This document shows positions 15,958 through 37,293 of a stretch of DNA of 39,611 nt, in pieces. The DNA is taken from positions 1,797 through 41,407 of the forward strand of contig CAZHVO010000003.1 of assembly GCA_964536195.1 (NCBI GenBank). The letters run 5' to 3'. Made by a program: the position numbers and the translations under genes. Positions within the stretch are counted from its first letter, which is position 1. Every line of letters begins with the position of its first letter. Below the pieces are notes generated by a model. That model worked only from the letters and a program-made list of their open reading frames with translations, was not told the origin of the DNA and did not search any database. This DNA is from an uncultured Planctomycetia bacterium (lineage in GTDB: Bacteria; Omnitrophota; Gorgyraeia; Duberdicusellales; 4484-171).

Positions 15958-15989
15958 TGTGTTAAAAATTTTATCCTAACTGAATAAAA

Positions 15990-20972: not shown

Positions 20973-23170
20973 AAATGTCTAAAATTGTTTTGATAAATCC
21001 TGTAAATCTTGACCCCCCGCCTAATTATTTTGGGCCGCCATATGGGTTAAGTCTTATAGCGGCTAATCTTTTAAAATGCAACAAGAAAGTTACCGCTTAT
21101 GACTTTGACTTTCAACCGATGCCGGTAATGCTGCAGGCAATCCCGGAAATACTAAAAAAAGATAAACCTGATTATATAGGTATTGCAACACAAAGTTGTG
21201 CTAGAGGTTCAGTATATCAGATCATTAGGGCAATAAAAAAAAATGATAACAAGGTAAAGATAATATTAGGTGGGCCATTTGCGTCATTGAAATTTGAGTT
21301 GCTTTTGCGCAATTTTGCTGTTGATTTTGTAATAATCGGCGATGGAGAGATAACTTTAAATCAGCTTATTGATTGTATTGACAATAAAGATAACTTGAGT
21401 GATGTGGATGGTATAGCATATATAGGAAGTGGTAAGCTTTGTGTGACTCAGGAAAGAGAAAAAATAAGCAATTTAGATCAATTACTTTACCCTGCTTTTC
21501 ATCTTTTTAAAGACTTTAATGAGAGAATGGCCTTTCCTAAAAATCTTGGCCCTTTGCCAAATTTTTTATTAGGTAAACGGTGTACAACCTTAAAAGATGC
21601 ATTGTTAATGTTGTCTTCCAGAGGGTGTATTTATAGCTGTAACTTTTGTCCAATGAGCAAGATAACTAAGCATAAAATAAGATTTCATAGCCCGGAGTAT
21701 TTTGTAAATATGGTTGAGTATTTTCATGAAAAGTATAGTATTAGTGATTTTGTTTTTGGCGATAATTTCTTTACATTAAGAAAAGAAAGAGTTCTGAAAA
21801 TTTGTGAGTTGATATTACAGAAAAAGCTAAAAATAAAATGGGGTTGTATGACTCGTTCTGATTATGTTGACGAGGAGATGTTGTCGATAATGGCGAAAGC
21901 TGGCTGTTTTGAAATATCTTATGGAGTTGAAAGTGGATCAGTTTTGATTCAGAAAAAAATAGGTAAAAATCTTGATCTAGCTAAAACCAAAGAATCATTT
22001 TTAATGACGGAAAAGTTTGGCATTAGAAGTGTGCTTATGCTTATGATTGGGAATAGTGGAGAAAATGTAAATACGATAAAGCAGACTATGAAATTTGTCC
22101 GCGGAATGAGGCCGGATAGTATTTTGGTTAAAAAAGTAAAGGTGTATCCCGGTACAAAAATTCATGATATTTTTGAACAAAAAGGTTTGATAGATGACAA
22201 TTATTATTTAGGCGATGACTACCATCCGCCTACCTTTACTTTGGCGCATAGCCAAAATAAACTTAATGATTTTTCAGATATGATTAAGTCGAGGAGGGTA
22301 TATATAGACTCTACTAACGTTTCAAACAACAATTCATTGTTTAGTGATTTAGATAGCGGTTTAAGAGATAAAGATCTTGATACCATTAAAAAAGAACTTG
22401 CATTAGCTTTAACTAGGGCAGAACTGGTGGTACTGACCGGAGGCGAGTTTTTTCTGCGTAAAGATTTTTTTGATATTCTGCGATTTGCTATCGACTTAAA
22501 TCTTCATCATCTTTATATAAAAAGCAACGCAAGAATATTTTTATACAATAAGTTTTTAGAAAAATTGATGAATATAGAATGTCTGGAAAAAATTTTAGTT
22601 CCTTTTTACGGCGAAGAGGCTTATCACGATCAAGTTTGCCGGGTTAAAGGAGCTTTTTCCCAAACTGTAAAAGGCATTAAGAATTTAAAATTAAGATTTC
22701 CTTACATCAAAGTCCAGGCACAAATACCAATTTTACTTAATAATTTTGAAAGAATTCAGGATTTAACAGTAATGCTTTCAAATATGGGGGTTGATGAGTT
22801 TCACTATCTATTTGGCCGTAGTTGCGATGGGATTACGAAAGTAAGTCCGAATAATTTACCGCTTATCAGCAAAGCTATGAAGAGTATTGCAACGGCAAGT
22901 AAGTGGTTGGTTAAAAAAAATAAAGAAATATCTTTTGAGGGTGTGCCTTTATGTATAGCCGGAAAGTACAAATACTATTGTTGCGATTTCACGCAGCCCT
23001 TTGACGAGGTAATAACATTTGATAATAAAGTCGTGGGTTGTATTGAATTGAGAAAAAAATATAAGAAAAAGTATTTTTTTTGTAGAAAATGCAAAGAGGG
23101 TGATTTGTGTGAAGGTGTTTGGAGAAATTATGCGAAAATAGCAAAATCTGATGAGCTTAAACCATACTGA
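20969..23170 (+). CDS. B12-dependent radical SAM (class B methyltransferase-like) fused to a degenerate HxsC-like domain
   Basis: IVLINP, PPYGL, ILGGPFAS, IGDGE, SSRGCIYSCNFC, YGVESGS; C-domain SNNNSLFS, LTGGE, VPLC, CRKCKEGDLCEG. Confidence 0.87.
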   Translation: MKMSKIVLINPVNLDPPPNYFGPPYGLSLIAANLLKCNKKVTAYDFDFQPMPVMLQAIPEILKKDKPDYIGIATQSCARGSVYQIIRAIKKNDNKVKIILGGPFASLKFELLLRNFAVDFVIIGDGEITLNQLIDCIDNKDNLSDVDGIAYIGSGKLCVTQEREKISNLDQLLYPAFHLFKDFNERMAFPKNLGPLPNFLLGKRCTTLKDALLMLSSRGCIYSCNFCPMSKITKHKIRFHSPEYFVNMVEYFHEKYSISDFVFGDNFFTLRKERVLKICELILQKKLKIKWGCMTRSDYVDEEMLSIMAKAGCFEISYGVESGSVLIQKKIGKNLDLAKTKESFLMTEKFGIRSVLMLMIGNSGENVNTIKQTMKFVRGMRPDSILVKKVKVYPGTKIHDIFEQKGLIDDNYYLGDDYHPPTFTLAHSQNKLNDFSDMIKSRRVYIDSTNVSNNNSLFSDLDSGLRDKDLDTIKKELALALTRAELVVLTGGEFFLRKDFFDILRFAIDLNLHHLYIKSNARIFLYNKFLEKLMNIECLEKILVPFYGEEAYHDQVCRVKGAFSQTVKGIKNLKLRFPYIKVQAQIPILLNNFERIQDLTVMLSNMGVDEFHYLFGRSCDGITKVSPNNLPLISKAMKSIATASKWLVKKNKEISFEGVPLCIAGKYKYYCCDFTQPFDEVITFDNKVVGCIELRKKYKKKYFFCRKCKEGDLCEGVWRNYAKIAKSDELKPY

Positions 23171-26100
23171 AAATAATAGTGTTGCAAATATGCTGATTTG
23201 TATTACAGCAAAATGCCAATTAGATTGTTCTTATTGCAGTCTTGACCGGGAGGTTCAGGATATTACTGAGTCGATGCTATACGATGCATTGGACTTGTTG
23301 TTTACAGCCAAGAAAGATATCCTGGAGATACAATTTTTTGGCGGTGAACCATTGTTGAGGTTTGATCTTATGGAAAAGGCAGTTAATTATGCAACGGAAA
23401 AAAATCAAAAAATAGGAAAAAATATCAGGTATGTTTTAACTACCAATGGTTTAATCTTGAATGATGAAAATTGCCAGTTTTTAAAACAGCATGATTTTAC
23501 ATTGTTACTAAGTATTGATGGCATGCCAGAAACACAAATTAAGAATAGGCCTTTGAGTTTTTCGGGTAAAACAAATTATTTTGAGTCAATTTCAAAAGCT
23601 TTAGCTTTTCTTAAAGTTTTCAAAATCGATTATTTTGTCAATATGGTTTTTATGCCTGATGATGTAAAAAAGATGACTGAAAACGTAGAATACCTTATCG
23701 ATTTGGGCGTGAAGGATATACAACTAGCTTATGCGGTTGGACAGTATTTTAGTGATAATAATATTTTTAGATCTGTGGATGAATTTACTAAAATAGCTCA
23801 GTTGGCTAAGGAGAGAAAAGTACGTTTTCGTAATTTAGACAATGATAATGAACCGATATTGTTTTCTCCACAAGTAGTCGTGAGTCCTTTGGGTAAAGTT
23901 TATGTTGGGTGTGCGTTGGTTTTAGAAAAGAAATTTAAAGAATTCAATGATATTTTTTATTACGATCAGTTAAATAATGGGTTAACCTTTGAAGATGTTT
24001 GCCGGACAAATTCTGAGCAGTTTGCCTTGCTTGAGAAAAATAGGGATAAAATAGATAAAGCTTTATTTAGCAATTTATCTTTGGGTGTCGCTTTGGATAT
24101 CTTTGCTAAACATTATCGCATAAGCAAAGATAAGGGCTTAAATATGTACGAGGCCCAGAGTAATTATCTATACCATGATAAACTTATGCTAATGCTTACC
24201 CATAAATGCCAGATGTGTTGTCGTTATTGCTATCTTGATTTTACTCATCCCGACATCAAAGAAGAGGTAATTTATAAGGCTATAGATGTTTTGTTTTTTT
24301 CACAGAAGAAGGATAGTGTCGAGATACAATTTTTTGGCGGTGAACCTTTGCTGAGATTTGACCTTATGAAAAAGACCATAAATTATGCAGAGAAAAAATG
24401 TGTAGAGGCCGGGAAAAAAGTAAAGTATCTCTTAGCTACTAATGGAATTGGGTTAGGTGCTAAGGAATTGGAATATTTGTCTAATTATCAGGTTGGTTTT
24501 ATTCTTAGCATTGACGGTAAAAGCCGTACTCAAAGATATAATCGACCGTTATTAAACAAGAAGAAAAATTATCCTTTTATTCGATTTACGCGGGTTATCA
24601 ATAACTTGGTAGGCCAAAAACGGGATTTCTTTATTAATCTTGTTGTTGGTCCCAAAAATGTAAATGCTTTAGTTGACAATGCTTTGTTTTTTTTAAAGTT
24701 GGGCGTAAAGAATATAAGACTATCTTATGAACTTGGAGTTTTTTGGGAAAAAAAATATATCATCCGATATTGTATCGCTTCATTTAAGATTATGTGGGAG
24801 TGGATAAAACATGGTGATAATAATTTAATAAATTTACATGTTGATGATGAGCCTTCTCTTATATCTCCGGTGCTTACAGTTGATTACGAGGGAAGTGTTT
24901 ATAGTGGGTGTACAATAACTTTAGAGAAGTTATTTCCGGCTTTTCGAAAAATTAATTATATTGACAATATATGTAATGTTAAAAGAATGGAAGATATGAG
25001 TCGAACCAGGAAAGAAGTAGTGAGTAAAATGTGGAGTTTATCTGAAAAACGTGAGTTGGTGTTTAATAATCTTATGGTCGGTAAACTTGCCGAGCAGCAT
25101 TTCCATAAATTTAACGTGGAAGAAAAGAAAGACGTCGACTCAGACTTGCCTAAATATAAGGTAAGCGGGCTAATGCTAATGTGTACTTATCAGTGCCAAT
25201 TAAAATGTGGATATTGCGAGATAGAACAATGTGATAAGTCAATGAAGCAGAAGGTAGTTGAGGATGCTATTGATTTGCTGTTGACCACTAAGGGCAAAGA
25301 GTGTTTGTTGAGATTTTGGGGCGGAGAGCCTTTGCTTGAATGGGAACTTATTAAAAAAGGGATTAAGGCCGGAATTAAGAAAGCCAAAATAAAAAACAAA
25401 AAGCTAAAATTTTCCATTACTACTAATGGATTACTGTTGGATGAAGAGAAACTTGATTTTTTAAAAAAGAATTCAGTGGAAATAATGTTCTCTATGGATG
25501 GAGATGAATTAGCAAATAAAACTTTTAGGCTAAAAGGGGTTAATGAAAAACTTTATACTGAGTTGGAGAATAACTTAAAGCTTTTAGCTAATTCAGGTAT
25601 CGCCCATTTTGTTAATTTAGTGGTTTTTCCGGATAACGTAGAACACTTGGCTAAAAATATCAGTTTTATCAAACGATTAGGAGTTCAGCGGATACAGATT
25701 GGTTATCAGAATGCTGTATTTTGGGGTGCAGATAAGGTTAAGGCGATGCAAGATCAAATAAGAAAGTTTTTTGAGGCAAATGGAGGAGAAGAGCTATTGA
25801 TGAATTTCGTTAATGATTGTGAACCGACAATGCTTAGTAATGAAATATTGGTGGATGTGGACGGAAAACTTTATTTGGACGGAGCTGTTTTCATGGAAAA
25901 AGATTTTCCTGCCCTGCGAAAGCAATATTTTTTAGGTGATCTTAAGGCTATTAAGCGTGTTGATGACCTGTATTTAACTAAAAAAGATGTATTCAATAAA
26001 TTCAAAAAAGCATGTAATGCTAGGCAGCGTAAGCTATTAGATAATAATATTGATCTTGGTCTGGAAATGGAATATTTTTACAATGATTTTTCTTCTCGTT

Positions 26101-27032
26101 CTTTTCAATCTAACGAGCATCCGGTTTTGATTCCCGTTCTAAAAAGTGATGTTGAAGCTCAACAGAAGACTTTGAAAAAGATAGGCATAAACTCTTCATT
26201 TTTATATCTAAATGGCCCCTGTAGAAACAATTGCATATTTTGTCTTAATAAAGAAGAGGAGCGCTATTCTGATCCTTTTAAAAGTGAACGCTTGATTGAG
26301 AAGAATAAGGATTTGAAGAATAATAAATTATGTATTGTCGGAAATGACCCTCTCCTGCATCCTGATATCATTACTATTGTAGAATTAGCCAGAGGATTCA
26401 ATTTTAAAGAGATAGAAATCATGACTTCAGGAGAAGTATTGGCTAATGAGGGTTTTACTAAAAAGTTGATTAATTCCGGTGTTAGTTCATTTTCTCTTCC
26501 TTTATATTCTGATATAGCCCAAATCCATGATTTTATAGTAGGAGTTAAAGGTAGCTATCCGAAGGTTTTGAAGGGCGTAGAAAATGTTTTATCTAATAGA
26601 GGGAGGGTGTTTGTTCATTCTAATTTGTTGAAGCAGAATATTGACGGTCTAAAAAAATTAGAAGGGTTTGTGAAAAATATTTTAGGTTTGCCGTTTGTTA
26701 TTTTGCCGGTTAGACCTAAAAGTTCTAATTTGTTATACAAAGATTTAGTGCCTTCTTATAGGGATATTGTAATGAAGTTAAAAGGGGTAAATTCTTTGAT
26801 GGCTTTTCCCCTATGCGTTGTTAAGCAGGTTCAGAAGAATATTTTTAAAGATGAAAGCGAGATAGCCGATTCGATGAAATTATATGTTTTAGACCAAAAG
26901 TTTGTTAAACCGCAAAAGTGCCGCCGGTGTGCGGATCGCCTTAAATGTGTGGGGATTTTTAAAGAGCATGGCCAGATGTATGGAGTTGGAGCTTTGAAGC
27001 CTTTTATTAGAAATGGCAAGAAAATCAGTTAA
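23151..27032 (+). CDS. Four-domain radical SAM protein (B-B-B-A)
   Basis: CQLDCSYC (aa 22), CQMCCRYC (aa 353), CQLKCGYC (aa 682), CRNNCIFC (aa 1024) in one open frame. Confidence 0.88.
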   Translation: MSLNHTENNSVANMLICITAKCQLDCSYCSLDREVQDITESMLYDALDLLFTAKKDILEIQFFGGEPLLRFDLMEKAVNYATEKNQKIGKNIRYVLTTNGLILNDENCQFLKQHDFTLLLSIDGMPETQIKNRPLSFSGKTNYFESISKALAFLKVFKIDYFVNMVFMPDDVKKMTENVEYLIDLGVKDIQLAYAVGQYFSDNNIFRSVDEFTKIAQLAKERKVRFRNLDNDNEPILFSPQVVVSPLGKVYVGCALVLEKKFKEFNDIFYYDQLNNGLTFEDVCRTNSEQFALLEKNRDKIDKALFSNLSLGVALDIFAKHYRISKDKGLNMYEAQSNYLYHDKLMLMLTHKCQMCCRYCYLDFTHPDIKEEVIYKAIDVLFFSQKKDSVEIQFFGGEPLLRFDLMKKTINYAEKKCVEAGKKVKYLLATNGIGLGAKELEYLSNYQVGFILSIDGKSRTQRYNRPLLNKKKNYPFIRFTRVINNLVGQKRDFFINLVVGPKNVNALVDNALFFLKLGVKNIRLSYELGVFWEKKYIIRYCIASFKIMWEWIKHGDNNLINLHVDDEPSLISPVLTVDYEGSVYSGCTITLEKLFPAFRKINYIDNICNVKRMEDMSRTRKEVVSKMWSLSEKRELVFNNLMVGKLAEQHFHKFNVEEKKDVDSDLPKYKVSGLMLMCTYQCQLKCGYCEIEQCDKSMKQKVVEDAIDLLLTTKGKECLLRFWGGEPLLEWELIKKGIKAGIKKAKIKNKKLKFSITTNGLLLDEEKLDFLKKNSVEIMFSMDGDELANKTFRLKGVNEKLYTELENNLKLLANSGIAHFVNLVVFPDNVEHLAKNISFIKRLGVQRIQIGYQNAVFWGADKVKAMQDQIRKFFEANGGEELLMNFVNDCEPTMLSNEILVDVDGKLYLDGAVFMEKDFPALRKQYFLGDLKAIKRVDDLYLTKKDVFNKFKKACNARQRKLLDNNIDLGLEMEYFYNDFSSRSFQSNEHPVLIPVLKSDVEAQQKTLKKIGINSSFLYLNGPCRNNCIFCLNKEEERYSDPFKSERLIEKNKDLKNNKLCIVGNDPLLHPDIITIVELARGFNFKEIEIMTSGEVLANEGFTKKLINSGVSSFSLPLYSDIAQIHDFIVGVKGSYPKVLKGVENVLSNRGRVFVHSNLLKQNIDGLKKLEGFVKNILGLPFVILPVRPKSSNLLYKDLVPSYRDIVMKLKGVNSLMAFPLCVVKQVQKNIFKDESEIADSMKLYVLDQKFVKPQKCRRCADRLKCVGIFKEHGQMYGVGALKPFIRNGKKIS

Positions 27033-28125
27033 TACCCAGCAATTATTAAAAAGATTAGCAGAGTTGGGCATCAAGGATCCTTTAAGTAGTAATACTTTGG
27101 GAGAAGTGTACTTAATGTTATCTCTGCGTTGCAATTTACGATGTAAGGTATGTTCTTGGTGGGGGGCAAAAGGCCCTTGCAGGGATAGAGGGTTTATGGA
27201 TAAATATGCTTCATCGTTGACCTTGAAAGAGCTTAAACCTTTCATGGAAGATATTATAAGCTTTTCTCCGAAAACAATTACTTTTTCTGGAGGAGAACCG
27301 CTTATGTATAAAAAATGGTATGTTTTGGCCGATTATTTTAAGGCAAGGGGAGTCAAAGTGTCTTTAACCACAAACGGTGTATTTTTTCTAAATAATTTCG
27401 ATAAATTGGTTAATGTTGTAGACGAGATAAACCTTTCATTAGGCGGCCCCCCTTCTATACTGAATCTTATCCGAGACAATCGCCCCAGCCATTTTAATAA
27501 GATACTGCAGGGGTTGAAAAAAATAAGTGATTTTAAGCGAAACAACCGCAATAAGCCTTTGTTAGGGATACTTTATACTATTTCAGATATAAGCTATGGC
27601 TATATGTCGGAACTTATAGAATTTTTACAAGATAACCGTATTCCAATTGACCGGTATTGTTTTCAACATTTGATGTTTATCGGCCCGGATACATTTAAGG
27701 CTCAGCAAAGAATATTTAAAAATAAGTTCGGGATTACATCTTTAGATTTGTGGCAGGGATATACTTATCTCCCCAAGAAAATAGATTTTAAAAAATTCAG
27801 AGATGAGATAAAAAAAGTAAAAAAAATGGCAAATGTAAGATTCAGCCCTGATTTTCGTCTTCACGAAATAGAAGACTATTATAAATGTAATAGAGGGGCA
27901 TTACATTATGCCGATTACTGTACCGCTCCTTGGCATCAGATAGATATGATGCCTAACGGAGATGTCTATACCTGTCATGATTATTTTATCGGTAATATAA
28001 AAAATTCGTCATTTAAGGATATATGGAACGGACAAAAAGCAAAGAATTTAAGAAAATATCTTTTGAATAAATTGTTTCCCGGGTGTAAGGGGTGTTTTTA
28101 TCATTATTGCGATAGGGTAGATTAG
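27013..28125 (+). CDS. Radical SAM protein with SPASM/twitch domain
   Basis: CNLRCKVC, FSGGEP, CTAPW..MPNGDVYTC..IGNI..FKDIWNG..CKGC. Confidence 0.88.
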   Translation: MARKSVNTQQLLKRLAELGIKDPLSSNTLGEVYLMLSLRCNLRCKVCSWWGAKGPCRDRGFMDKYASSLTLKELKPFMEDIISFSPKTITFSGGEPLMYKKWYVLADYFKARGVKVSLTTNGVFFLNNFDKLVNVVDEINLSLGGPPSILNLIRDNRPSHFNKILQGLKKISDFKRNNRNKPLLGILYTISDISYGYMSELIEFLQDNRIPIDRYCFQHLMFIGPDTFKAQQRIFKNKFGITSLDLWQGYTYLPKKIDFKKFRDEIKKVKKMANVRFSPDFRLHEIEDYYKCNRGALHYADYCTAPWHQIDMMPNGDVYTCHDYFIGNIKNSSFKDIWNGQKAKNLRKYLLNKLFPGCKGCFYHYCDRVD

Positions 28126-28148
28126 CTTAAAGAAGGTAGGGAAAGTGT

Positions 28149-28177
28149 TTGTTGATTCTGAGGTTTCGTGGTATATT
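28149..28177 (+). promoter_or_regulatory. Possible internal promoter for the second half of the cluster
   Basis: TTGTTG (28149-28154), 17 bp, TATATT (28172-28177) preceded by TG; strong SD aaggaggt before 28203. Confidence 0.4.
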
Positions 28178-28202
28178 TATCTATAGATAATAAAGGAGGT
28201 GT

Positions 28203-28697
28203 GTGATGAGAGCAACGAAAGCAAAAAAGGAAAGCGGTAAATCAGGGAAAAAAGGCAAAAGTAGAAAAGGAGCCCTCTATGCTCCAAAATCCTCAACAGT
28301 AGTCGCTGGAAGATTTATTGATAGTGGAGATGGTACAATAACCGATTTGAAGACAAGGTTAATGTGGGCTAAAGAAAGTAATAGTATTGGTTGCTATTGC
28401 GGCAAGAAAATGACATGGAACGATGCTGTTAAATATGCAAAGTCTCTATCGTCTGCAGGATATTCTGATTGGCGCCTTCCGGAAATAGAAGAATTAATAA
28501 GCATTGTAGATTATTCAAAACTTGACCCTGCCATTCACGAGGTTTTCCTGAGTACACCTAATGGCTATTTTTGGACAAGTACTGTTTTTAAAAGTGATAC
28601 CAGAGGCGTCTGGGTAGTAGGCTTTGATACCGGAAGAGTCAATGGCGATGACAAGAGCGAATTTTTTTATCTTAGATGTGTTCGTAATATAAAATAG
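28203..28697 (+). CDS. DUF1566 (Lcl C-terminal-like) domain protein with a Lys-rich N-terminus
   Basis: RFIDSGDGTITDLKTRLMW, TWNDA, GYSDWRLPEIEEL, FWTST, LRCVR. Confidence 0.85.
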   Translation: MMRATKAKKESGKSGKKGKSRKGALYAPKSSTVVAGRFIDSGDGTITDLKTRLMWAKESNSIGCYCGKKMTWNDAVKYAKSLSSAGYSDWRLPEIEELISIVDYSKLDPAIHEVFLSTPNGYFWTSTVFKSDTRGVWVVGFDTGRVNGDDKSEFFYLRCVRNIK

Positions 28698-28714
28698 CGA
28701 GAGTATTTAAAGAG

Positions 28715-29134
28715 ATGGCTATTAATCGTCGCGTAGGGAAGTTCGCTTTCTGCTGTCCTCACTGTCGGGTTATAGCAGAAGATTTAAGATATTGCCCCTT
28801 ATGTGGTAGAAAACTGTTTGTGGTTAAAGAAGGCTATTATGCTAGTCTCTTAGGAGATACCGTAATAAAAACTGACTTTCCTGAACAGAAAAAACCTTCT
28901 CATCTGGGAGATTTTCCTTGGATAAGTATATGTGTTTGTTCTAAGTGTAAATACACGGTTCATGCGGGAGAGGTTTGTCCTGTAGATGGTACAAAGCTAA
29001 AAAAGAAGATAGTTAAAATAGCTTACGCTTGCAAAAGAGACAGAATCGCTTTTTCTACTAAGACAACGTGTCCTCTTTGTAAAATTCCCACCATAAAAAT
29101 TGAGGACGTTCATACTGTTAAATTTGCCATTTAA
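28715..29134 (+). CDS. Small protein with three Cys-knuckle (zinc-ribbon/heavy-metal-binding-like) units
   Basis: CPHC..CPLCG, CSKC..CPVDG, CKRD..CPLC. Confidence 0.65.
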   Translation: MAINRRVGKFAFCCPHCRVIAEDLRYCPLCGRKLFVVKEGYYASLLGDTVIKTDFPEQKKPSHLGDFPWISICVCSKCKYTVHAGEVCPVDGTKLKKKIVKIAYACKRDRIAFSTKTTCPLCKIPTIKIEDVHTVKFAI

Positions 29135-29219
29135 TCTTTGTTGGAGGCGTATTTGATTAAATTAGATTCTTCCATAAGGGTTTAGCTTTGGTAAAGATAA
29201 CCTTTTTATTACATAACAA

Positions 29220-30149
29220 ATGGAGCGGCTTGAATTTCATATCTCATACAAATGTTATAACAATTGTTGTTTTTGCAGTGAAAGCGGCCAATTAAGTAAA
29301 TTCAGAGATTTATTTGTTTCCCGAGAGAAGATTATTGCTAATCTGGAAAATTTTGCCAAAAAAGGCTTTAAACATATTACTTTTACCGGAGGCGAGCCGA
29401 CCTATCATCCTCATTGTATTGAGATTCTGAAATTAGCCAAAAAATTAGGATATAAAACTTATCTGACAACTAACGGTGGACTGTTCTCGCTAAAGAAGTT
29501 TACCCAAAAAGCTTTGCCCTATCTTGATGAAGTTTGTTTTTCACTTCACGGCCACACTGCAAAGCTCCATAATTTTCATACTCGTAACAAAAAAAGTTTT
29601 AGTAAACTGGCCAAAGCCTTAGCAAACATAGAAGAGGCAAAGGAAAATACTTTTGGGTTTGCTAATATTGTAATAACTAAATATAATTTCGATTTTTTAA
29701 TTGAGATTATCGATTTCATTAGTCGCTACAAGAAGATAAAACAGGTTCTTGTTTCCAATTTTGCTCCTGAAGGTAACGGGTTATCCAATTTTAATGAATT
29801 AGTTGTACCTTTATTCCGAATTAAAGAAAAGGTTGGCGCGATCGTCGATAAGGCAGAGAGTCAATCTATAGTGGCAAGATTTTTTGGAGTACCGCTTTGT
29901 GCATTAAATGGTTATTGGAATTATTCTAACGATGCTTATTGGTCATCGCGTACGACCATTGAACAATGGAAAACGAATAAAAAGATATTTCTAAAGAAAA
30001 CTTTAAGCTATAAACCGGTTCGGGGAAGAGTTAAAACTCTCAAGTGCCGGCAATGTTTAAAAAAAGATATTTGTGGAGGACTTTTTAAAAAATATTATCA
30101 TGAATTCGGTGATTATGAATTAATGCCGTTTTCAAGAGAGGTAGAATGA
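29220..30149 (+). CDS. Radical SAM protein, HxsC-like (group A)
   Basis: CYNNCCFC, FTGGEPT, VPLC, CRQCLKKDICGG. Confidence 0.88.
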   Translation: MERLEFHISYKCYNNCCFCSESGQLSKFRDLFVSREKIIANLENFAKKGFKHITFTGGEPTYHPHCIEILKLAKKLGYKTYLTTNGGLFSLKKFTQKALPYLDEVCFSLHGHTAKLHNFHTRNKKSFSKLAKALANIEEAKENTFGFANIVITKYNFDFLIEIIDFISRYKKIKQVLVSNFAPEGNGLSNFNELVVPLFRIKEKVGAIVDKAESQSIVARFFGVPLCALNGYWNYSNDAYWSSRTTIEQWKTNKKIFLKKTLSYKPVRGRVKTLKCRQCLKKDICGGLFKKYYHEFGDYELMPFSREVE

Positions 30150-32239
30150 ATAATAATCAAAGAGATTTGACAGCACAGGTTAAGAAAAAATGGGTTAGGC
30201 TAACTCGGGTGTGCAATAACCGCTGTCTATTCTGCTTGGACAAGAATGCACAGAATGGTAGTCATTTATCCCTAGCTGAGATAAAAAAAGTTTTTCAAGC
30301 CGGGCGTAAAGAAAAGGCAGAAAAAGTTATTTTAAGCGGCGGCGAACCTACTTTGCACCCGAAATTTATTGATATTGTAAAAAAAGCTAAAAAACTGGGC
30401 TATACTAAGATTCAGGTTATTACCAATGGCAGGATGTTTGCTTATAAGAAATTTTTAGATCAGGCAATAAATGCTGGTGTTGGTGAGGTGACTTTTTCTA
30501 TACATGGACATAATCAGAGATTACATGATAAACAAACCGGAGTAAAGGGGTCTTTTTTCCAAACTTTGGCCGGTTTAGCGGCTGCTTTACAGACTCAGGG
30601 GCTTATAGTAAATGTAGATATTGTGATTAACAAAATCAACATACGCTATCTGAAAGACATTATAGAGTTTTATATTAATTCAGGCGTTTTAGAGTTTGAT
30701 CTCCTGCAAGTTATGCCTTTTGGCCGAGCCTGGGACAATAGAGAGGTTCTTTTTTACGACATTGAAGAGTCACTTCCATTTTTAAATGAGGCTTTCCAAT
30801 TATCCAGGGACCCCAATCTACATATTTGGACCAATCGGTTTCCGCCGGAATACCTTGAGGGTTTTGAAGATTTAATTCAACATCCAGTTAAGCTATATGA
30901 CGAAGTAGGCGGACGTCGTGACATGTTTGATAGATTCCTTAATAATGGAAAAAAAATGGATTGTAAAGGCAAGAAATGCTCATATTGTTTTTTGGAAAAC
31001 TTTTGTAAAGATGTGATACTGCTAAAAGAAAAAGGTGAATTGACCTCACACGTTCTCCCTTTTTGTTTAAAAGAGGCGAAAGAGACCCGCGATGTAAAGA
31101 TGCAGTGTAAATATACATTGAGTAAAGACAACAGGGGTATTTTTAAGTTCCTTTCTTTTTATATTCAGCATAGATATTTTATAAAGGGGCTAAGGTGCAA
31201 AAAGTGTAAATTTAATGATCGCTGCACAGGAATGCAATGTGATTATATCCGTAATCATGGATTCCAGGTTTTGAAGCCGATTCTGGACAAGAGAACAAAA
31301 TATAAACAAACTGTTTTGCAAAAAAACATTCCCTACAGGCTTCTTCGGTTAAATTTAGCCTGCAATGCTAATTGTCTATTTTGTAATGTGCCGCCGGAGT
31401 CTTATCCGTTGCAAGAAATGTCGACTCAGCAAGCTAAATCCGAAATTGATCGTCTTATTGCTTTAGATAAAGAATTAAGATTGGATATTACCGGTGGTGA
31501 ACCTACTTTAAGGGGCGATTTAGAAGAGTTAATCGAATATGCATCTAAAAAAGGAGCAAAGGTAATTGAAATTCAGACCAATGGTATTTTATTGGCTAAT
31601 AAAGAGTACGTAAAAAAATTAAAATTAGCGGGCCTTGGTAAAGCATTCTTGGCTCTTCATTCTTGTTATCCTGAGATTCACGATTTTCTTGTCGGCAGAA
31701 AGGGTGCTTTTGAAAAATGTGTTACTGGTATTAAAAACTTATTGAAAGCCGGCGTTGAAGTCATTCTGAATCCGGTAATTACTGTTAAGAATTATGAATG
31801 TTTACCGGATTATATAAAATTTATCAAAAACAATTTTCCCCGGATAAAATCCGTATCTCTTTCGGTTGTTCAGCCGCGAGGCCGCGCAGGAAATAATAAA
31901 TATTTAATACCCCGTTACAAGGTAATTTCCTCTCATATAAGAAAAGCATTGACACTGGCTAAAAAATATGGATTGATTATCTATAATCCCTATTGTGGAG
32001 TGCCATTATGTATAGGGGGATGGCATCGCTACCCGGAGCAGTGTGTGGAATATTGCGAGAATCTTTTGAAGTCAAAAAGCGGTTTCGGAGAAGATGATTT
32101 TAATGCCGATAAGGTGAAAAGTCCCGACTGTTGCAAGTGCGATTTAAATAATTTTTGCAATGGCGTATGGAAAGAGTATGCCGCGATTTATTCTTTTTCT
32201 GATTTAAAGCCGGTCAGGCTGAAAAAGCAAGCTATCTAG
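30146..32239 (+). CDS. Tandem two-domain HxsC-like radical SAM protein (A-A)
   Basis: CNNRCLFC/LSGGEPT/LPFC/CKKCKFNDRCTG and CNANCLFC/ITGGEPT/VPLC/CCKCDLNNFCNG. Confidence 0.88.
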   Translation: MNNNQRDLTAQVKKKWVRLTRVCNNRCLFCLDKNAQNGSHLSLAEIKKVFQAGRKEKAEKVILSGGEPTLHPKFIDIVKKAKKLGYTKIQVITNGRMFAYKKFLDQAINAGVGEVTFSIHGHNQRLHDKQTGVKGSFFQTLAGLAAALQTQGLIVNVDIVINKINIRYLKDIIEFYINSGVLEFDLLQVMPFGRAWDNREVLFYDIEESLPFLNEAFQLSRDPNLHIWTNRFPPEYLEGFEDLIQHPVKLYDEVGGRRDMFDRFLNNGKKMDCKGKKCSYCFLENFCKDVILLKEKGELTSHVLPFCLKEAKETRDVKMQCKYTLSKDNRGIFKFLSFYIQHRYFIKGLRCKKCKFNDRCTGMQCDYIRNHGFQVLKPILDKRTKYKQTVLQKNIPYRLLRLNLACNANCLFCNVPPESYPLQEMSTQQAKSEIDRLIALDKELRLDITGGEPTLRGDLEELIEYASKKGAKVIEIQTNGILLANKEYVKKLKLAGLGKAFLALHSCYPEIHDFLVGRKGAFEKCVTGIKNLLKAGVEVILNPVITVKNYECLPDYIKFIKNNFPRIKSVSLSVVQPRGRAGNNKYLIPRYKVISSHIRKALTLAKKYGLIIYNPYCGVPLCIGGWHRYPEQCVEYCENLLKSKSGFGEDDFNADKVKSPDCCKCDLNNFCNGVWKEYAAIYSFSDLKPVRLKKQAI

Positions 32240-32390
32240 ACTATGCCGGGAGTTAAAAGGAAGAATTTATATTAGAACCAGCGGCTATCACAATAACCCT
32301 GGCCCTTAACCGAAGGGTAACCCTGATAAGCAACAAAGTAAAAAAAGTTAGATTTTAACAAAGGACAGTAACTATTTAAAAGTAGTAATA

Positions 32391-33410
32391 ATGATTGTTA
32401 TGGGCCTCGCGGATAAATGTAATTTTAATTGTTTATTCTGTTTAGATAGACAGAGTAGGGGGAAAGGTTCTCCGTCATTACAAGAAATCAGAGGATTATT
32501 TGAAGAAATTAAGAGAAGCAACGAAAATACAATTATGTTGATGGAAGGGGAGTCGCTTATTAGACCAGATTTTTTTGAGATATTGGAAGAAGCAAAGAGA
32601 TGCAAATTAAATGTGTATATTACGACTAATGGTTCAATGCTTAGTTATTATGATTATTTAGTAAAGATTATTAAGAGAGGCGTGAGTCAAATAAACCTTT
32701 CTATACATTCTCATATTCCTGCTATTGCCAATGCCATATCGAGAAATAGCTCTTGCTATTCTTTACAGAGAAAGGCATTAGAAAATATCGATTTATTTAA
32801 TTCCTTGCAAAAAAGAAAGGTAAAAAGAATACCTTTGTATATCAATACAGTTGTTTGTAAATTAAACTATAAACATTTAGAGGGCTTGGTTCTTTATCTA
32901 AAGGGCCTATTAAAGCACACTGATTTTAAAATAAAGTTCAAGTTTATGGTCCGCGGTGGTATTAATATTAATCTTTATAGGAAGCTTTTGCCTTCCTTAA
33001 AAGAAATGAAGCCTTATCTCAAGAGGGCGATAAGCATATTAGGTATAAATAAGGTAATATTCTCTGGTTTTCCTTTGTGCGTTGCGCCTTCCTACGAACG
33101 AGCATGTGTTGAATTGTGGGAGGCATTATATAGCCATAATTTGTATCTCGATTCTTACAGATTAAAGAACTCTAGAACGCAGAGAGACGTAGTTGACCAG
33201 GAATATTGTAAATATAAAGAGTGTAAGGGTTGTTCCTTGAATTCTATATGTTTGGGAGTAAGAAAGGATTACAAGAAGTTAAATCCCGATTTTAATTTAA
33301 CATTATCGAAAAGCAATCCCCAAGAGGTATTTAAGTTTATGAAGTGTTTTCCAGGGAAATCTAAAATAGCAAATCTTGAGATAGAAGAAAAGGAAATATG
33401 GCCAGCTTAG
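32391..33410 (+). CDS. Radical SAM protein, divergent HxsC-like (group A)
   Basis: CNFNCLFC, variant LMEGES, TTNG, FPLC, CKGCSLNSICLG; start uncertain. Confidence 0.82.
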   Translation: MIVMGLADKCNFNCLFCLDRQSRGKGSPSLQEIRGLFEEIKRSNENTIMLMEGESLIRPDFFEILEEAKRCKLNVYITTNGSMLSYYDYLVKIIKRGVSQINLSIHSHIPAIANAISRNSSCYSLQRKALENIDLFNSLQKRKVKRIPLYINTVVCKLNYKHLEGLVLYLKGLLKHTDFKIKFKFMVRGGININLYRKLLPSLKEMKPYLKRAISILGINKVIFSGFPLCVAPSYERACVELWEALYSHNLYLDSYRLKNSRTQRDVVDQEYCKYKECKGCSLNSICLGVRKDYKKLNPDFNLTLSKSNPQEVFKFMKCFPGKSKIANLEIEEKEIWPA

Positions 33411-34330
33411 CCTACATACAGGTTTGTCGTATATGCAATCAGGAGTGTAGGTTTTGCTCCAATCCTTCGCTGGATAAGACTATATCGTTAAAGAAGGCTA
33501 AGAGTCTTGTTGACAATTATATTAGGCAGGGATATGAGGGGGTAATTTTAAGCGGAGGAGAGCCGACGATGTACCCTTATCTTGTAAAACTTATATCTTA
33601 TATAGCAGCTAAAGGATTACCGATGCGGATAATTACTAATGGTCAAAAAACAGCGAATTTTGAATATATTAAGTCGCTTACTGATGCCGGTCTAAAACAT
33701 ATGGGCCTATCTATATATTCTCATAAGCCGCGTATTCAGTCTTTTCTCACTAAAAATAAAGATTCACTCAAGAATATAAAAATAACTCTTAATAATATCG
33801 AAAGATTAAATATGAGCGTTGACATCGGGACGGTGATTAATAAATATAATGCCGGACATCTGAGCGAAATTGTTGAATGGCTGGTAAAAGAATACCCTTT
33901 TATTCGCCATTTTATCTGGAATAATCTTGATGCTTCAATGAACCGTGCTTCTGAGAATCCGGATACAATACCATCACTGATTGGTTTTGAATTAGAACTT
34001 TATAAAGCAATGTTGTTTTTACACAATAAGGGTAAAACTTTTAGAGCCGAAAGAGTGCCTTTGTGCTACATGACTGAATTTGCGCATTGTTCCACCGAGG
34101 CAAGAAAAATAATAAAAAAAGAAGAAAGAACAATTTATTTTTTGGACAAAAAGGGTTTGACATTTCAGAAAGGATGGGCTTACGGAAAAACTGAGTGCTG
34201 TAATGAATGTTCTTTAAATAAGATATGTCCCGGTTTATACTTAATAGATAAGTATTTTTCTTCTAAAGAGTTATATCCTGTTTTTGTTTCAAAAGATGAA
34301 GTAATAAAACGCGTTTTAGCCAACCCATAA
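33398..34330 (+). CDS. Radical SAM protein, HxsC-like (group A)
   Basis: CNQECRFC, LSGGEPT, VPLC, CNECSLNKICPG. Confidence 0.88.
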   Translation: MASLAYIQVCRICNQECRFCSNPSLDKTISLKKAKSLVDNYIRQGYEGVILSGGEPTMYPYLVKLISYIAAKGLPMRIITNGQKTANFEYIKSLTDAGLKHMGLSIYSHKPRIQSFLTKNKDSLKNIKITLNNIERLNMSVDIGTVINKYNAGHLSEIVEWLVKEYPFIRHFIWNNLDASMNRASENPDTIPSLIGFELELYKAMLFLHNKGKTFRAERVPLCYMTEFAHCSTEARKIIKKEERTIYFLDKKGLTFQKGWAYGKTECCNECSLNKICPGLYLIDKYFSSKELYPVFVSKDEVIKRVLANP

Positions 34331-34331
34331 A

Positions 34332-35219
34332 ATGGCAAAAAGATTAGATATAAAAGTCACTTTTAAGTGCAACAACAGTTGTAAATTTTGTGTTCAGGGG
34401 GATAAGAGAAAGTTTTGCCAAGATAAAAAGTTTTATGAGATTAAAAAGATTTTAAAAGAATCAAAGAGTGATTATGATGAAGTTATATTTACCGGCGGAG
34501 AACCTACCATAAGGCCTGATATCATAGAATTGGTAGAGTATGCTAACAAATTAAAATATAGGGTGCATATCCAAACCAATGGGAGGATGTTTTTATACAG
34601 AGAATTTTGTAAAAGGATGATAGAGGCCGGTGCCGCAGCATTTACAGTTTCAATACATGGCCATAACGCTCGGCTGCACGACGCTCTTACTGGGGTAGAG
34701 GGGAGCTTTGATCAAACCATTGCAGGTATTAAGCATCTTTGTTCTCTCAAGGCAGAAGTGTTTACCAATAGTGTTATCACCACTTTAAATTATTGTTTTT
34801 TACCCAAAATAGCTGTTATGGTGATTAATTTAGGTATATTTGAATATCGGCTTTCTTTCCCTCACATTTTGGGAAGAGCATTAACCAATAGAGATTGGAT
34901 TGTGCCGCGAAAAAAAGCAGTCGTCCCTTACGTAAAGAGGGCATTGGAAATCGGCATTAAGAAAGGGCGGATTCCTTTAACTGAGGCTATACCGCATTGT
35001 TTTCTAAGCGAATATGTTCATTGTGCTTCTGAAACCTATATGCCCGAGACAAAAGTGTTTGATAATAAATTAATAGTAGATTTTAGCCGTTGGCGGATGG
35101 AAGAGGGAAAAAATAAAGGGCCAAAATGCAGAGAATGTAAATATTTTGAATGTTGCGAGGGTCCCTGGCGGGAATATCCTGAAATTTTCGGCTGGGATGA
35201 ATTTACTCCTATTAAATAA
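34332..35219 (+). CDS. Radical SAM protein, HxsC-like (group A), close paralogue of 14059..14949
   Basis: CNNSCKFCVQG, FTGGEPT, TEAIPHC, KGPKCRECKYFECCEGPWREYPE. Confidence 0.88.
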   Translation: MAKRLDIKVTFKCNNSCKFCVQGDKRKFCQDKKFYEIKKILKESKSDYDEVIFTGGEPTIRPDIIELVEYANKLKYRVHIQTNGRMFLYREFCKRMIEAGAAAFTVSIHGHNARLHDALTGVEGSFDQTIAGIKHLCSLKAEVFTNSVITTLNYCFLPKIAVMVINLGIFEYRLSFPHILGRALTNRDWIVPRKKAVVPYVKRALEIGIKKGRIPLTEAIPHCFLSEYVHCASETYMPETKVFDNKLIVDFSRWRMEEGKNKGPKCRECKYFECCEGPWREYPEIFGWDEFTPIK

Positions 35220-35224: not shown

Positions 35225-36181
35225 TTGAATATGTCGACTAACATTATATCTAATATAATTTTTTTGCCGGTCATTTTGTTTATTGGTTGCGTTACAAGCT
35301 ACGAAGATTTTACGATTTCAAAGATTAGGAATAAATGGATTTTAATGGGATTACTCTATGCATTTGCAGTATATTCGGTATCCTGGATTTTGTATGCTTT
35401 AGCCGCAAGTGAAATCATAAGTCCTGTTATCGGAAAAGTAACCTCTGATCTGGTATGGATTTTTGATAAATGGTGTATAAATTTAGTGATAAGCATTATT
35501 GTGGCTTATCTGTTATGGCATTTTAAAATGTGGGGGGCCGGCGATGCAAAACTTTTTATTTGTTATTCTTCACTGATTCCAATGGCGCAGTACTCCAAAG
35601 TGTATTTTGATTATTATTTTGCCTCGTTTTGGCTATTAGTGGCTATTTTTATACCAGCAACAATCTTTTTCTTTGTGCGATCGTTAGCCTATCTTATTAA
35701 AAAAATTACTTTTAGAAACATTAAAGAAACGCTGCCGAAGATGATTAAGGAAAGGTTGGGCAAAGTTAATAAAATTGAGATAGCCAGAACTATATTTGGC
35801 TTTTTCGTTCTTTTCCTATTTTTTAGAGTATTAAGACAGGAATTTCAGAATTTACTTCGCGGAGTTTTGCCCAATCAAAATATCGTAATGCTCTTACCTT
35901 TATTGGCGTTCCGGCCGCTATCTAGAATTTTCAAAAAGAATATCAAATTTACAGTTATTGCTTTTGTTTTTTTAACAGCATACCTTATTTTTAAAATGTT
36001 ATATTCTTGGGAAAGATTTATCCGTGAGATAAGCGGTACACTGGGATGGGTTATATTTATTATGGTATTATTTCCAACTGTCAAAAAGATAATAAATCTT
36101 TATACGGAAAGGATTACTCAAAAAACTAGTCCTTTTGCTCATTGGATGTTTTTAGGGATGCTAATTGTTTGGTTTCTTTAA
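35225..36181 (+). CDS. A24-family prepilin/preflagellin-type aspartic peptidase (start 35225 TTG or 35231 ATG)
   Basis: First catalytic Asp in SYEDF..KIRN, second in WGAGDAKL (GxGD), C-terminal PFAHWMFLG; multi-TM. Confidence 0.8.
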   Translation: MNMSTNIISNIIFLPVILFIGCVTSYEDFTISKIRNKWILMGLLYAFAVYSVSWILYALAASEIISPVIGKVTSDLVWIFDKWCINLVISIIVAYLLWHFKMWGAGDAKLFICYSSLIPMAQYSKVYFDYYFASFWLLVAIFIPATIFFFVRSLAYLIKKITFRNIKETLPKMIKERLGKVNKIEIARTIFGFFVLFLFFRVLRQEFQNLLRGVLPNQNIVMLLPLLAFRPLSRIFKKNIKFTVIAFVFLTAYLIFKMLYSWERFIREISGTLGWVIFIMVLFPTVKKIINLYTERITQKTSPFAHWMFLGMLIVWFL

Positions 36182-36192: not shown

Positions 36193-37293
36193 GTGATGTT
36201 TAAATTCAAAAATGTTTCGATGGGGCTCATAATCCTTTGGTTAATCTCGATGAATTTCGCTAATTCATATGCTGGCGAGGTTGCTTTGTATAGAGGTAAC
36301 TTAGAAAGGACAGGGGTGTTTTCTTCTTCGGCGCTCAAAGAGCCCGTTGAAATAAAATGGAGATTTAAAGCAAAAGGTGAGATAAGCTCTTCTCCAGTAG
36401 CTCACGAAGGGGTAGTTTATTTTGGAAGCTATGACGGAAATTTATACGCCTTAGATGCTAACAGCGGTGAAGAAAAATGGCGGTTTGATACCGGTGATTG
36501 GATACGTTCTTCGGTAGCTGTATTCGGAGAAAAAGTCTATTTTGGGAGCAGAGACGGCAATTTTTATGCCCTGAGTGCCAAAACAGGTAAAGAAATATGG
36601 AGATACCATATCGGAGATTGGATAATTTCTTCTCCTGCTGCATATGAGGGCGTGGTCTATTTTGGAAACGGAGGAGCCTTCTACGCTTTGGATGCATTGA
36701 ACGGAGAATTAAGATGGAAGGTTGAAACAGGTTTAGCTGTTTGGGCATCTCCGGCTATATACAAGGGGATAGTTTATTTTGGGAGTTTTAACAAGAGTTT
36801 TTATGCAGTTGATGCCAAAACCGGTGAAGAAATCTGGAAGTTTAAGGCAGGAAGTCAGATAGAGAGTTCACCCGCGATAGTCGAGGATATAGTCTATTTT
36901 GTAAGCCGTGATGGAGGCCTTTACGCTTTGGATACAGCAACGGGTCGCGAGGAATGGAGATTCAAAGTAGATGCTGAGATAATCACTTCACCGGTGATAT
37001 TTAAAGATATTATTTATTTTGGAACCAACAAGGGGTTATGTGCAGTAGATATAAAGATGAGTCGAGAAAAATGGAGATTTAATGTTGGAACCTGGGTGCA
37101 CTCTTCACCGGCGATAGCCGGGGGAGTGCTTTACTTTGGCGGATATGGCATCTTTTATGCCTTGGATAGCAGTGATGGTAGGGTTTTATGGACTTTTGAA
37201 ATGGCAAAAGGGTCAACATTCTCGTCACCTTCCGTATATGATGGTGTAATTTATTTCGGTGCTGTTGATTATTCTCTTTATGCTTTTGAATAG
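36193..37293 (+). CDS. Secreted PQQ-like (BamB-type) 8-blade beta-propeller protein
   Basis: SD aggagg; signal peptide ending NSYA|G; eight SSP-x4-G-x-VYFG..LYALD..G..W repeats. Confidence 0.88.
   Translation: MMFKFKNVSMGLIILWLISMNFANSYAGEVALYRGNLERTGVFSSSALKEPVEIKWRFKAKGEISSSPVAHEGVVYFGSYDGNLYALDANSGEEKWRFDTGDWIRSSVAVFGEKVYFGSRDGNFYALSAKTGKEIWRYHIGDWIISSPAAYEGVVYFGNGGAFYALDALNGELRWKVETGLAVWASPAIYKGIVYFGSFNKSFYAVDAKTGEEIWKFKAGSQIESSPAIVEDIVYFVSRDGGLYALDTATGREEWRFKVDAEIITSPVIFKDIIYFGTNKGLCAVDIKMSREKWRFNVGTWVHSSPAIAGGVLYFGGYGIFYALDSSDGRVLWTFEMAKGSTFSSPSVYDGVIYFGAVDYSLYAFE

Follow-up and report, generated by a model that had tools for sequence, protein, structure and literature searches.

An A24-like membrane aspartyl peptidase as a candidate leader peptidase of the HxsA4 radical S-adenosylmethionine peptide clusters of Omnitrophota

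Could a peptidase of the prepilin type serve the maturation of a modified peptide? The question is raised by a stretch of 39,611 nucleotides from an uncultured bacterium placed in the phylum Omnitrophota (assembly GCA_964536195.1, contig CAZHVO010000003.1, positions 1,797 to 41,407 of the forward strand; henceforth the window, to which all coordinates refer). Here a gene for an A24-like (GxGD) membrane aspartyl peptidase, which we call A24L, directly follows a long array of radical S-adenosylmethionine (rSAM) genes and lies in the same cluster as a 98-residue precursor peptide, HxsA4. A24 prepilin-type peptidases process pilins, pseudopilins and archaellins. The known leader peptidases of ribosomally synthesised and post-translationally modified peptides (RiPPs) include the C39 domains of PCAT exporters, LanP-type S8 enzymes, S9 prolyl oligopeptidases, TldD/E and M16, and we know of no A24/GxGD enzyme among them. 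Like them, A24L has its gene among those for a precursor and its maturases, and that precursor bears a conserved leader with a terminal Gly. A first-pass annotation of the window had proposed that the peptidase processes the HxsA4 precursor, possibly leading to surface display. From the comparative evidence set out below, we consider it reasonably probable that A24L is a dedicated accessory and leader peptidase of an Omnitrophota-type HxsA4 rSAM peptide system, and not a pilus gene. If so, it would be the first A24/GxGD protease to act as a RiPP-type leader peptidase, extending the A24 family to modified-peptide maturation and adding an intramembrane aspartyl protease to the enzymes of leader removal. 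Our literature search, judged by titles, turned up no paper that ties A24 peptidases to the maturation of RiPPs or of rSAM-modified peptides, and Hxs, prepilin and RiPP are not mentioned in the available portion of an Omnitrophota genome preprint (10.64898/2026.06.07.730766).

The distribution of A24L was assessed by searching 401 Omnitrophota genomes with the A24L protein and with HxsB, the rSAM maturase that marks Hxs clusters. The single-protein search found an A24L relative in 24 genomes, each of which also carried HxsB at E ≤ 1e-30, on the same contig in 23 cases; no A24L relative was found in any of the 347 genomes without an HxsB match. HxsB itself was present at E ≤ 1e-30 in 54 genomes and exceeded its cutoff in 37, and after profile follow-up A24L was present in 34 of these 37 (23 through the single protein, six through a family hidden Markov model within 10 kb of HxsB, and four plus one through whole-genome profile searches). 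The first-pass annotation had staked its proposal on orthologues of the peptidase following Hxs clusters, and they are seen to do so whether one starts from the peptidase or from HxsB. Neither HxsB nor A24L is present in the two sampled genomes of the same genus, which marks the Hxs cluster as an accessory island.

The linkage is equally evident at the level of gene neighbourhoods. When 20 kb were taken around 14 strong A24L matches from 13 genomes, A24L stood beside Hxs or rSAM genes in all 14 loci, typically in the order HxsD, HxsD-like, HxsB, Cys-rich protein, HxsA4, a variable set of rSAM genes and A24L. Three gene orders were distinguished: A24L at the cluster end; an A24L-rSAM pair divergent from HxsB-HxsA; and A24L upstream of HxsD-HxsB-HxsA. 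The number of rSAM genes ranged from none beyond HxsB to more than 10, the former in a minimal locus (L038) that holds only HxsD, HxsD-like, HxsB, two HxsA4 genes and A24L. An independent scan of metagenome contigs found rSAM or Hxs genes with A24L in 61 of 80 loci, and in 27 of 29 when only loci of 8 kb or more are counted; the 19 loci without them were mostly contigs shorter than 3 kb or had A24L at a contig edge. The linkage of the A24L clade to HxsB, HxsD and HxsA is thus clade-wide and robust to gene rearrangement.

The gene itself and the motifs on which its assignment turns are as follows.

35225..36181, plus strand: A24L, an A24-like (GxGD) membrane aspartyl peptidase, called as an open reading frame (ORF) of 318 amino acids from a TTG start
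35300..35311, plus strand: motif Y26-E27-D28-F29 of A24L, with the first putative catalytic aspartate, D28 (35306-35308)
35534..35554, plus strand: G104-A-G-D107-A-K-L110, the GxGD motif of A24L, with the second putative catalytic aspartate, D107 (35543-35545)
36131..36157, plus strand: P-F-A-H-W-M-F-L-G in the last helix of A24L, the conserved C-terminal motif of the family

Read from TTG, the gene begins 5 nt after the stop codon of the last rSAM gene (34332..35219); read from an in-frame ATG at 35231 it begins 11 nt after it and encodes 316 amino acids, the length of a database protein 100% identical to A24L. The first-pass annotation had given this spacing and both aspartate motifs correctly. 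The product is a polytopic membrane protein and starts straight with helix 1, lacking the N-terminal Cys-rich methyltransferase domain seen in PilD. In sequence and AlphaFold2 model both aspartates sit at helix ends beside basic loops, D28 falling at the end of helix 1, ahead of the loop S-K-I-R-N-K. Across a 61-sequence family alignment D28, W103, G106, D107 and K109 (A24L numbering) are invariant, as are A305, W307 and G311 of the C-terminal helix motif P-F-A-x-W-x-F-x-G, in which F304 and F309 are conserved in at least 90%. The invariance of both aspartates and of the GxGD glycine argues for retained catalysis. The family also carries about 170 extra residues of helices, inserted after the GxGD helix and ahead of the last conserved one.

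Membership of the A24 family is visible among the relatives of A24L. A word-indexed homologue search returned 131 proteins at E ≤ 0.001; among the 120 of them listed, 39 bear a precomputed PF01478 (Peptidase_A24) assignment, several are named 'prepilin peptidase' or 'Flp pilus assembly protein protease CpaA' by their sources, and the named source organisms are mostly Candidatus Omnitrophota. PF01478 is matched by 54 of the 61 aligned relatives at E ≤ 0.01 (best 1.2e-08), with the orthologues of two of our loci, L002 and L003, scoring 30.3 and 25.1 bits, respectively, where the cutoff is 26.5. The AlphaFold2 model, built on the 61-sequence alignment, has a mean predicted local distance difference test (pLDDT) value of 90.8. 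When this model was compared exhaustively with 48,161 chains by VIA-align, a single match reached a Z of at least 8, the archaeal preflagellin peptidase FlaK (PDB code 3S0X; chain 3s0x_B, Z 11.8, next match Z 5.8), on which 166 of 186 residues, spanning model residues 8-318, superimposed with a root mean square deviation of 3.5 Å. FlaK is the only solved structure that clearly matches the model, although identity is 14% and A24L differs in being bacterial, in the extra helices inserted ahead of its last helix and after the GxGD one, and in its genomic context. As modelled, A24L is a divergent but genuine A24/GxGD-fold protein of TadV/FlaK-like character with its putative catalytic dyad intact, and the prepilin-type identity proposed at first pass is upheld by motifs, relatives and fold. 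By analogy it would cleave class III signal peptides after Gly or Ala at the cytoplasmic face.

Is A24L, then, simply the prepilin peptidase of its genome? The first-pass annotation had named this, whether as only copy or as housekeeping enzyme, as fatal to its proposal, and it is not so. The source genome (1.17 Mb in 124 contigs, 91.7% complete) has one PF01478 match over cutoff, at 41 bits, on another contig (C72). This is a PilD of 286 amino acids with the CxxC..CxxC N-domain, and its neighbours are aroE (shikimate dehydrogenase) and aroC (chorismate synthase). A separate PilD-type gene is likewise present in five of five other A24L-carrying genomes, scoring 67-77 bits against PF01478, whereas the Hxs-linked A24L copies in the same genomes score 18-32 bits. 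In a maximum-likelihood tree of 54 rows (39 Hxs-linked A24L proteins, 11 PilD and four flp-adjacent TadV of Omnitrophota), the 39 Hxs-linked proteins are split by one branch from PilD and TadV, with a Shimodaira-Hasegawa-like approximate likelihood ratio test (SH-aLRT) value of 99, and each of the three gene orders corresponds to a largely coherent subclade; the tree carries a long-branch warning, and many kept columns are present only in the Hxs-linked clade. A24L thus falls in a clade separate from two of the groups against which a phylogeny was suggested at first pass, PilD and TadV.

PilD-type enzymes, according to the available part of a 2023 review (PMC10191384), are aspartyl peptidases of the membrane whose cut falls after Gly or Ala, at the cytoplasmic side. 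They share a Pfam family with A24L through its relatives, and differ in the CxxC..CxxC domain that A24L lacks, in clade and, in the source genome, in location. The likeness to TadV/CpaA/FppA is closer in kind. Both groups have two conserved aspartates, the first in a D-x-x-x-x-K-I-x-N context (D-W-K-A-R-K-I-P-N in Omnitrophota TadV, D-F-T-I-S-K-I-R-N in A24L), both show the GxGD motif, neither has the N-domain of PilD, and both adjoin a small precursor gene whose leader ends in (L/F)-(L/I)-x-D/S-E-S/E-G. However, A24L is about 318 residues long against about 172-178 for TadV, its PF01478 scores run from none to 32 bits where the Omnitrophota TadV genes, which adjoin flp genes, score 67-78 bits, and in the loci examined it is linked to Hxs and rSAM genes and never to tad genes. 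The candidate substrate differs too: unlike the substrates of TadV, HxsA4 has an 11-residue basic linker after the Gly and a His-rich tail, presumably rSAM-modified, and no E-Y motif.

To see what the cluster around A24L encodes, all plus-strand ORFs from 9538 to 39043 with 70 or more amino acids were scanned against Pfam and NCBIfam. The members upstream of A24L are these; some ORFs of the scan matched no family.

10059-10472, plus strand: HxsD (TIGR03976, 66.1 bits, cutoff 50)
10438-10665, plus strand: HxsD-like protein (NF038315, 73.3 bits, cutoff 41)
10653..12125, plus strand: HxsB radical SAM/SPASM maturase (TIGR03978, 502.3 bits, cutoff 370)
12092..12844, plus strand: Cys-rich protein with an N-terminal hydrophobic segment and no Pfam or NCBIfam match
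12813..13109, plus strand: HxsA4 precursor of 98 amino acids, the proposed substrate (NF038313 HisXaaSer_A4, 71.1 bits, cutoff 55)
13119..35219, plus strand: array of 13 radical-SAM ORFs of HxsC/HxsC4-like, PapB/HxsB-like, B12-rSAM and SPASM types, several of them multi-domain
28203-29134, plus strand: Lcl_C protein (PF07603, 111.6 bits) and double zinc-ribbon-like protein, in the middle of the rSAM array

With HxsB, HxsD and an HxS-repeat precursor all over curated cutoffs, the cluster is an Hxs system. Radical-SAM matches occur in 14 ORFs (10653-35219) beside the one precursor, making about 20 rSAM domains when counted by matched stretches; one ORF of 1,293 amino acids (23151-27032) has four, and two ORFs of the array are B12-binding rSAM proteins. 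The array is interrupted by an ORF at 19980-20972 and by the Lcl_C and zinc-ribbon proteins. The best scores for HxsC (TIGR03977, 215.9 bits, cutoff 267.9) and HxsC4 (NF038332, 231.5 bits, cutoff 500) both belong to the ORF at 30146-32239, and the HxsC-like ORFs of the window are, on such scores, paralogues below curated cutoff. The scanned cluster ORFs matched no C39, S8, S9, TldD/E or other peptidase family and no ABC transporter or pilus-assembly family, in agreement with what had been noticed at first pass about other proteases, exporters and pilus genes.

The HxsA4 precursor runs from a basic leader, through the heptad F17-L-L-S-E21-E-G23, a basic linker and a hydrophobic stretch, to a His-rich core ending in H-G-Q-W. 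Its N-terminal elements are placed as follows.

12861..12881, plus strand: F17-L-L-S-E21-E-G23, a leader end like that of Flp prepilins, with a candidate cleavage site after G23
12882..12914, plus strand: basic 11-residue linker K-I-T-K-K-N-I-A-K-L-G34, with a second candidate site after G34
12915..12968, plus strand: M-S-L-A-V-M-A-I-M-F then K-P-Q-A-A-S-A-A, resembling the h- and c-regions of a Sec signal, directly before the His-rich core

The F-L-L-S-E-E-G motif is the best-conserved part of the HxsA4 family, and in an alignment of 29 precursors no leader position other than E21 and G23 reaches 90% conservation. All 41 HxsA precursors examined contain the motif [FYLM]-[LIVMFT]-x-x-[EDN]-x-[GA], typically as F-[LI]-x-x-E-[ES]-G on a basic leader. 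The precursors share with class III signal peptides a hydrophilic leader that ends in Gly or Ala (again 41 of 41, with G23 at 90% or more). According to the available text of PMC10191384, prepilin leaders always end in Gly or Ala and are followed by 20-25 hydrophobic residues, the aspartates of the peptidase acting at the cytoplasmic face. In most of the 41 precursors the linker has 11 residues and a small last residue, our pattern giving another value or none in some; the uncharged stretch beyond it measures 14 residues at the median (10-21 in those that the pattern resolved) and often has an AxA-like end.

For comparison, 14 of 151 Omnitrophota genomes encode genuine Flp pilins, scoring over the PF04964 cutoff. 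These pilins have leaders of the form M-x-x-(L/F)-(L/F)-(K/R)-D-E-(S/N)-G followed by Q-T-M-V-E-Y-G-L-L, as in L-L-K-D-E-S-G before QTMVEY, and a TadV-type A24 gene adjoins the pilin gene wherever inspected. A second class of Hxs precursor carries F-I-K-D-E-S-G, a heptad near-identical to that of the Flp leaders. In the Tad prepilin of Caulobacter the first 14 residues are removed, so that the mature pilin begins at Ala15 and contains Glu19 and Tyr20, as given in the available part of a 2024 Sci Adv paper (PMC11067988).

Three further features of the precursors were recorded in passing. Their C-terminal ends fall into few fixed motifs, H-G-Q-W, G-G-W-C or, in the second class, H-x-S-Y, and the second class has a conserved Cys in the core. 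On one metagenome contig (L161, 4452-5507) an HxsA-type leader, F-L-L-K-E-D-G-K-I-S-K-K..., heads an ORF of 351 amino acids that runs off the contig; this ORF has two repeated segments starting C-C-F-x-A-G-T-M-I, one of them after F-L-V-H-N, reminiscent of Hint/intein-like domains.

The obvious point of reference is the canonical HXS system, HxsD-HxsB-HxsC-HxsA, which the available part of its description presents as an antiphage defence system (Nat Commun 2026, PMC13128918). There HxsA is N-terminally processed and exported to the periplasm, the processing being other than plain signal-peptide removal and the protease unidentified; Pseudomonadota account for 99.7% of the systems, and a four-gene make-up is seen in more than 99.8% of all systems (same part of PMC13128918). 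The window has in common with it HxsD, HxsB and the HxS-repeat precursor. It differs in that the precursor is a 98-residue HxsA4 with no peptidoglycan-binding domain and an extra Flp-like leader, and in having 14 rSAM ORFs as against two, together with a cluster-encoded A24-like peptidase. The Omnitrophota clusters, unusually large in devoting 14 rSAM ORFs to one peptide of 98 residues, are a different, much larger variant of HXS with its own peptidase. The one canonical HxsA (from an Aeromonas plasmid) and the one HxsA2 (from a Nostoc plasmid) that were inspected have a plain signal peptide and no Flp-like leader, and in four plasmid hxs loci no peptidase is annotated within 5-6 kb, in gene tables that are incomplete. 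For the N-terminal cut of HxsA described in the available part of PMC13128918, A24L offers a testable candidate type of enzyme, and its presumed precursor a recognisable leader motif, F-x-x-x-E-x-G.

How might A24L act on its precursor? Hxs clusters that hold both A24L and precursors with a pilin-like leader suggest that A24L probably cuts that leader, and it is on this comparative evidence, Hxs linkage and Flp-like leader, that the processing proposed at first pass finds favour. The following account of the substrate, where it is cut, the sequence of events and the route of export is inferred. HxsA4 would consist of four parts, namely a basic leader up to F-L-x-x-E-E-G, the 11-residue basic linker to G, a hydrophobic segment that is short and closes with an AxA-like site, and the His-rich core. 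The cytoplasmic rSAM enzymes would modify the core first, after which the hydrophobic segment may carry the precursor to the membrane. There the aspartates of A24L, predicted to lie at cytoplasmic helix ends near basic loops, could cut after a conserved Gly in the manner of prepilin peptidases acting on class III signal peptides, either at G23, the Flp-like position, or at G34, at the membrane boundary. To our knowledge all A24 substrates are cut at that boundary, the position of G34; G23 is slightly favoured as the candidate site because of its likeness to Flp leaders and its highest conservation. A cut at G23 would leave a normal-looking Sec-type signal, with a basic n-region, an h-region of 10-20 residues and AxA, which suggests that export of the core would follow, with release through signal peptidase I. 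The short hydrophobic segment followed by an AxA-like site likewise points to such an export route and not to a pilin-like fate. Surface display, the other part of the first-pass proposal, accordingly finds no support, there being no assembly genes in the cluster, only a short hydrophobic segment (median 14) and an AxA-like site after it. More tentatively, HxsA4 may be a hybrid, a leader of Flp-prepilin type set on a signal of Sec type, such that the cut by A24L at E-E-G after rSAM modification acts as an export checkpoint. This is possible, if less than likely; leader removal would in that event expose an ordinary signal peptide and license export to the periplasm.

Several results weigh against A24L as an A24-type leader peptidase of HxsA4. 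Some concern its family membership. A24L itself matches no Pfam model, even at E ≤ 10, and no NCBIfam model; models exist there for HxsA4, HxsC4 and HxsD-like, and scans of three further clade members and of the PilD of the same genome with NCBIfam were also blank. The A24 assignment consequently rests on relatives, motifs and fold. A profile of the A24L family found no match among PDB sequences at E ≤ 10, and aligning the family with the PilD of the same genome by hhalign gave a probability of 0.1, with only the first aspartate motif aligned. Foldseek returned nothing from the PDB at E ≤ 0.001, placing FlaK fourth by E-value (E 0.73) and first by probability (0.77, the highest of all matches), and since Foldseek left the FlaK match unresolved it was the VIA-align search that settled the likeness of fold.

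Others concern the linkage. Profile searches found no A24L relative in three of the HxsB-bearing genomes, G392 (96% complete), G221 (96%) and G276 (93%). In G221 and G276 HxsB lies at a contig end, and in G392 the precursor retains the leader motif. Among the metagenome loci, L162 is a real exception, the 5.6 kb upstream of its A24L being free of rSAM and Hxs matches to our queries. Canonical HXS, for its part, carries out N-terminal processing with no cluster-encoded protease, on the evidence of the available text of PMC13128918.

The precursor also departs from a class III substrate. Eleven basic residues follow G23 where a hydrophobic stretch would be expected at once; the uncharged stretch, with its median of 14 residues, falls short of the 20-25 given for prepilins in the available text of PMC10191384; there is no Glu at +5, where class III signal peptides often have one; and the Pfam model Flp_Fap matched none of 14 HxsA precursors even at E ≤ 10. 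The AxA-like site would moreover allow signal peptidase I alone to remove the whole N-terminus. Finally, prediction of a complex of A24L with HxsA4 residues 1-56 scored 0.58 (runs 0.58, 0.52 and 0.63; best control 0.01), the runs agreeing in at least 77% of contacts and the partner having a pLDDT of at least 65. The mark used was reached in calibration by 58 of 80 solved complexes and two of 110 mismatched pairs, but at scores of 0.60 or less by only seven of the 80 solved complexes and by both mismatches, so that the predicted pairing is backed weakly. The prediction gave no contact list and so makes no choice between G23 and G34.

If A24L is not the leader peptidase of HxsA4, it may have another substrate, such as the Cys-rich membrane protein at 12092-12844, the PQQ-like propeller encoded downstream or a protein encoded elsewhere, or it may act other than by proteolysis, as a membrane scaffold, exporter or immunity factor. 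The roughly 170 extra residues of helices, to which no function is assigned, would suit such a role, as would the faint signal in the complex prediction, and the Cys-rich protein has homologues in nine of the 14 loci. Yet where the second or third gene order prevails, our scripts turned up no homologue of the Cys-rich protein in most loci, and the minimal locus L038 offers A24L no partner beyond HxsD, HxsD-like, HxsB and two HxsA4 proteins. Among cluster partners HxsA alone bears a prepilin-like motif, and a non-proteolytic function sits poorly with the invariance of both aspartates and the GxGD glycine in 61 sequences. We therefore regard another substrate or role as improbable.

A different order of events is also conceivable. 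Signal peptidase I would act first, freeing the core by a cut at the AxA-like site; A24L would follow and cut the signal peptide left behind in the membrane with its long basic leader, either clearing this remnant or releasing the leader. Signal peptide peptidase, a GxGD relative, acts in this manner on leftover signal peptides in eukaryotes. A24L has the GxGD fold, and most precursors have an AxA-like c-region right before the core, preceded by a hydrophobic stretch of signal-peptide length (median 14). On the other side, we know of no A24-family member active on cleaved signal peptides, the most conserved positions, E21 and G23, are in the cytoplasmic leader and not in the hydrophobic stretch, and the precursor resembles Flp leaders, which are cut ahead of the hydrophobic segment. 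A clearing role of this kind is unlikely.

Last, A24L might be an ordinary peptidase of Flp/Tad or other type IV filaments, a chance neighbour of the rSAM cluster that serves the pilin-like protein at 5..598 or pilins encoded elsewhere. A 6-kb contig of the same genome (C63; locus L074, 1645-4371, minus strand) does hold seven or eight tandem small genes of Flp/TadE-like, class-III-like character, with N-termini of the K-A-Q-S-T-L-E-Y-A-L-I type, followed by a 496-residue Cys/Asp-rich protein and with no peptidase visible there; Flp_Fap matches to these genes reach only 13-15 bits, and one pilin-like protein of the contig gave no match among PDB sequences. The CpaA names given by some sources to A24L homologues point the same way. 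However, of 20 other genomes of the family, 11 encode a homologue of a protein from the C63 pilin cluster, including three without A24L (G145, G311 and G347), and such a homologue is absent from one with A24L (G382), which, with the strict Hxs linkage (24 of 24 carriers, 0 of 347 genomes without HxsB), the lack of tad or pil assembly genes in the cluster and the separate clade and flp-adjacent, high-scoring position of the genuine TadV of the phylum, makes a pilus role very improbable.

To return to A24L as part of the Hxs cluster, the genes that follow it and those outside the cluster are these.

36193..37293, plus strand: PQQ-like/BamB-like beta-propeller with a signal-peptide-like N-terminus (PF13570, 212.5 bits)
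37353-37429, tRNA-Pro(tgg); 37624-37700, tRNA-Arg(tct); 39062-39135, tRNA-His(gtg): tRNA genes flanking a downstream DUF748-like gene
5534-6310: M48 peptidase outside the cluster, from the family scan
5..598: pilin-like ORF outside the cluster, from its N_methyl motif (21.6 bits, cutoff 21.2)

The beta-propeller gene starts 11 nt after A24L with no terminator-like site between the two, and they are probably co-transcribed. It is an optional neighbour, lying directly after A24L also in three other loci (L042, L114 and L115) and not in most. The tRNA-Pro gene at 37353 closes the Hxs cluster. On the far side, unrelated housekeeping genes separate the M48 peptidase and the pilin-like ORF from it. 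In the pilin-like ORF K-K-S precedes I-T-L-V-E-L-L, so that the usual cut register would put Ser, and not Gly or Ala, before the hydrophobic stretch.

As to the extent of the clade, 1.84 billion representatives were searched exhaustively with the family profile. Matches at E ≤ 0.001 numbered 1,389 cluster representatives, of which 995 reached E ≤ 1e-10 and 266 reached E ≤ 1e-30. Fusions of rSAM domains with A24L were looked for among longer members and the candidates discarded, forms of 390-430 amino acids showing PF01478 only. Another candidate, P0129 (817 amino acids), is instead a fusion of a PMT_2 glycosyltransferase-like N-terminal part to an A24-like domain at residues 554-754.

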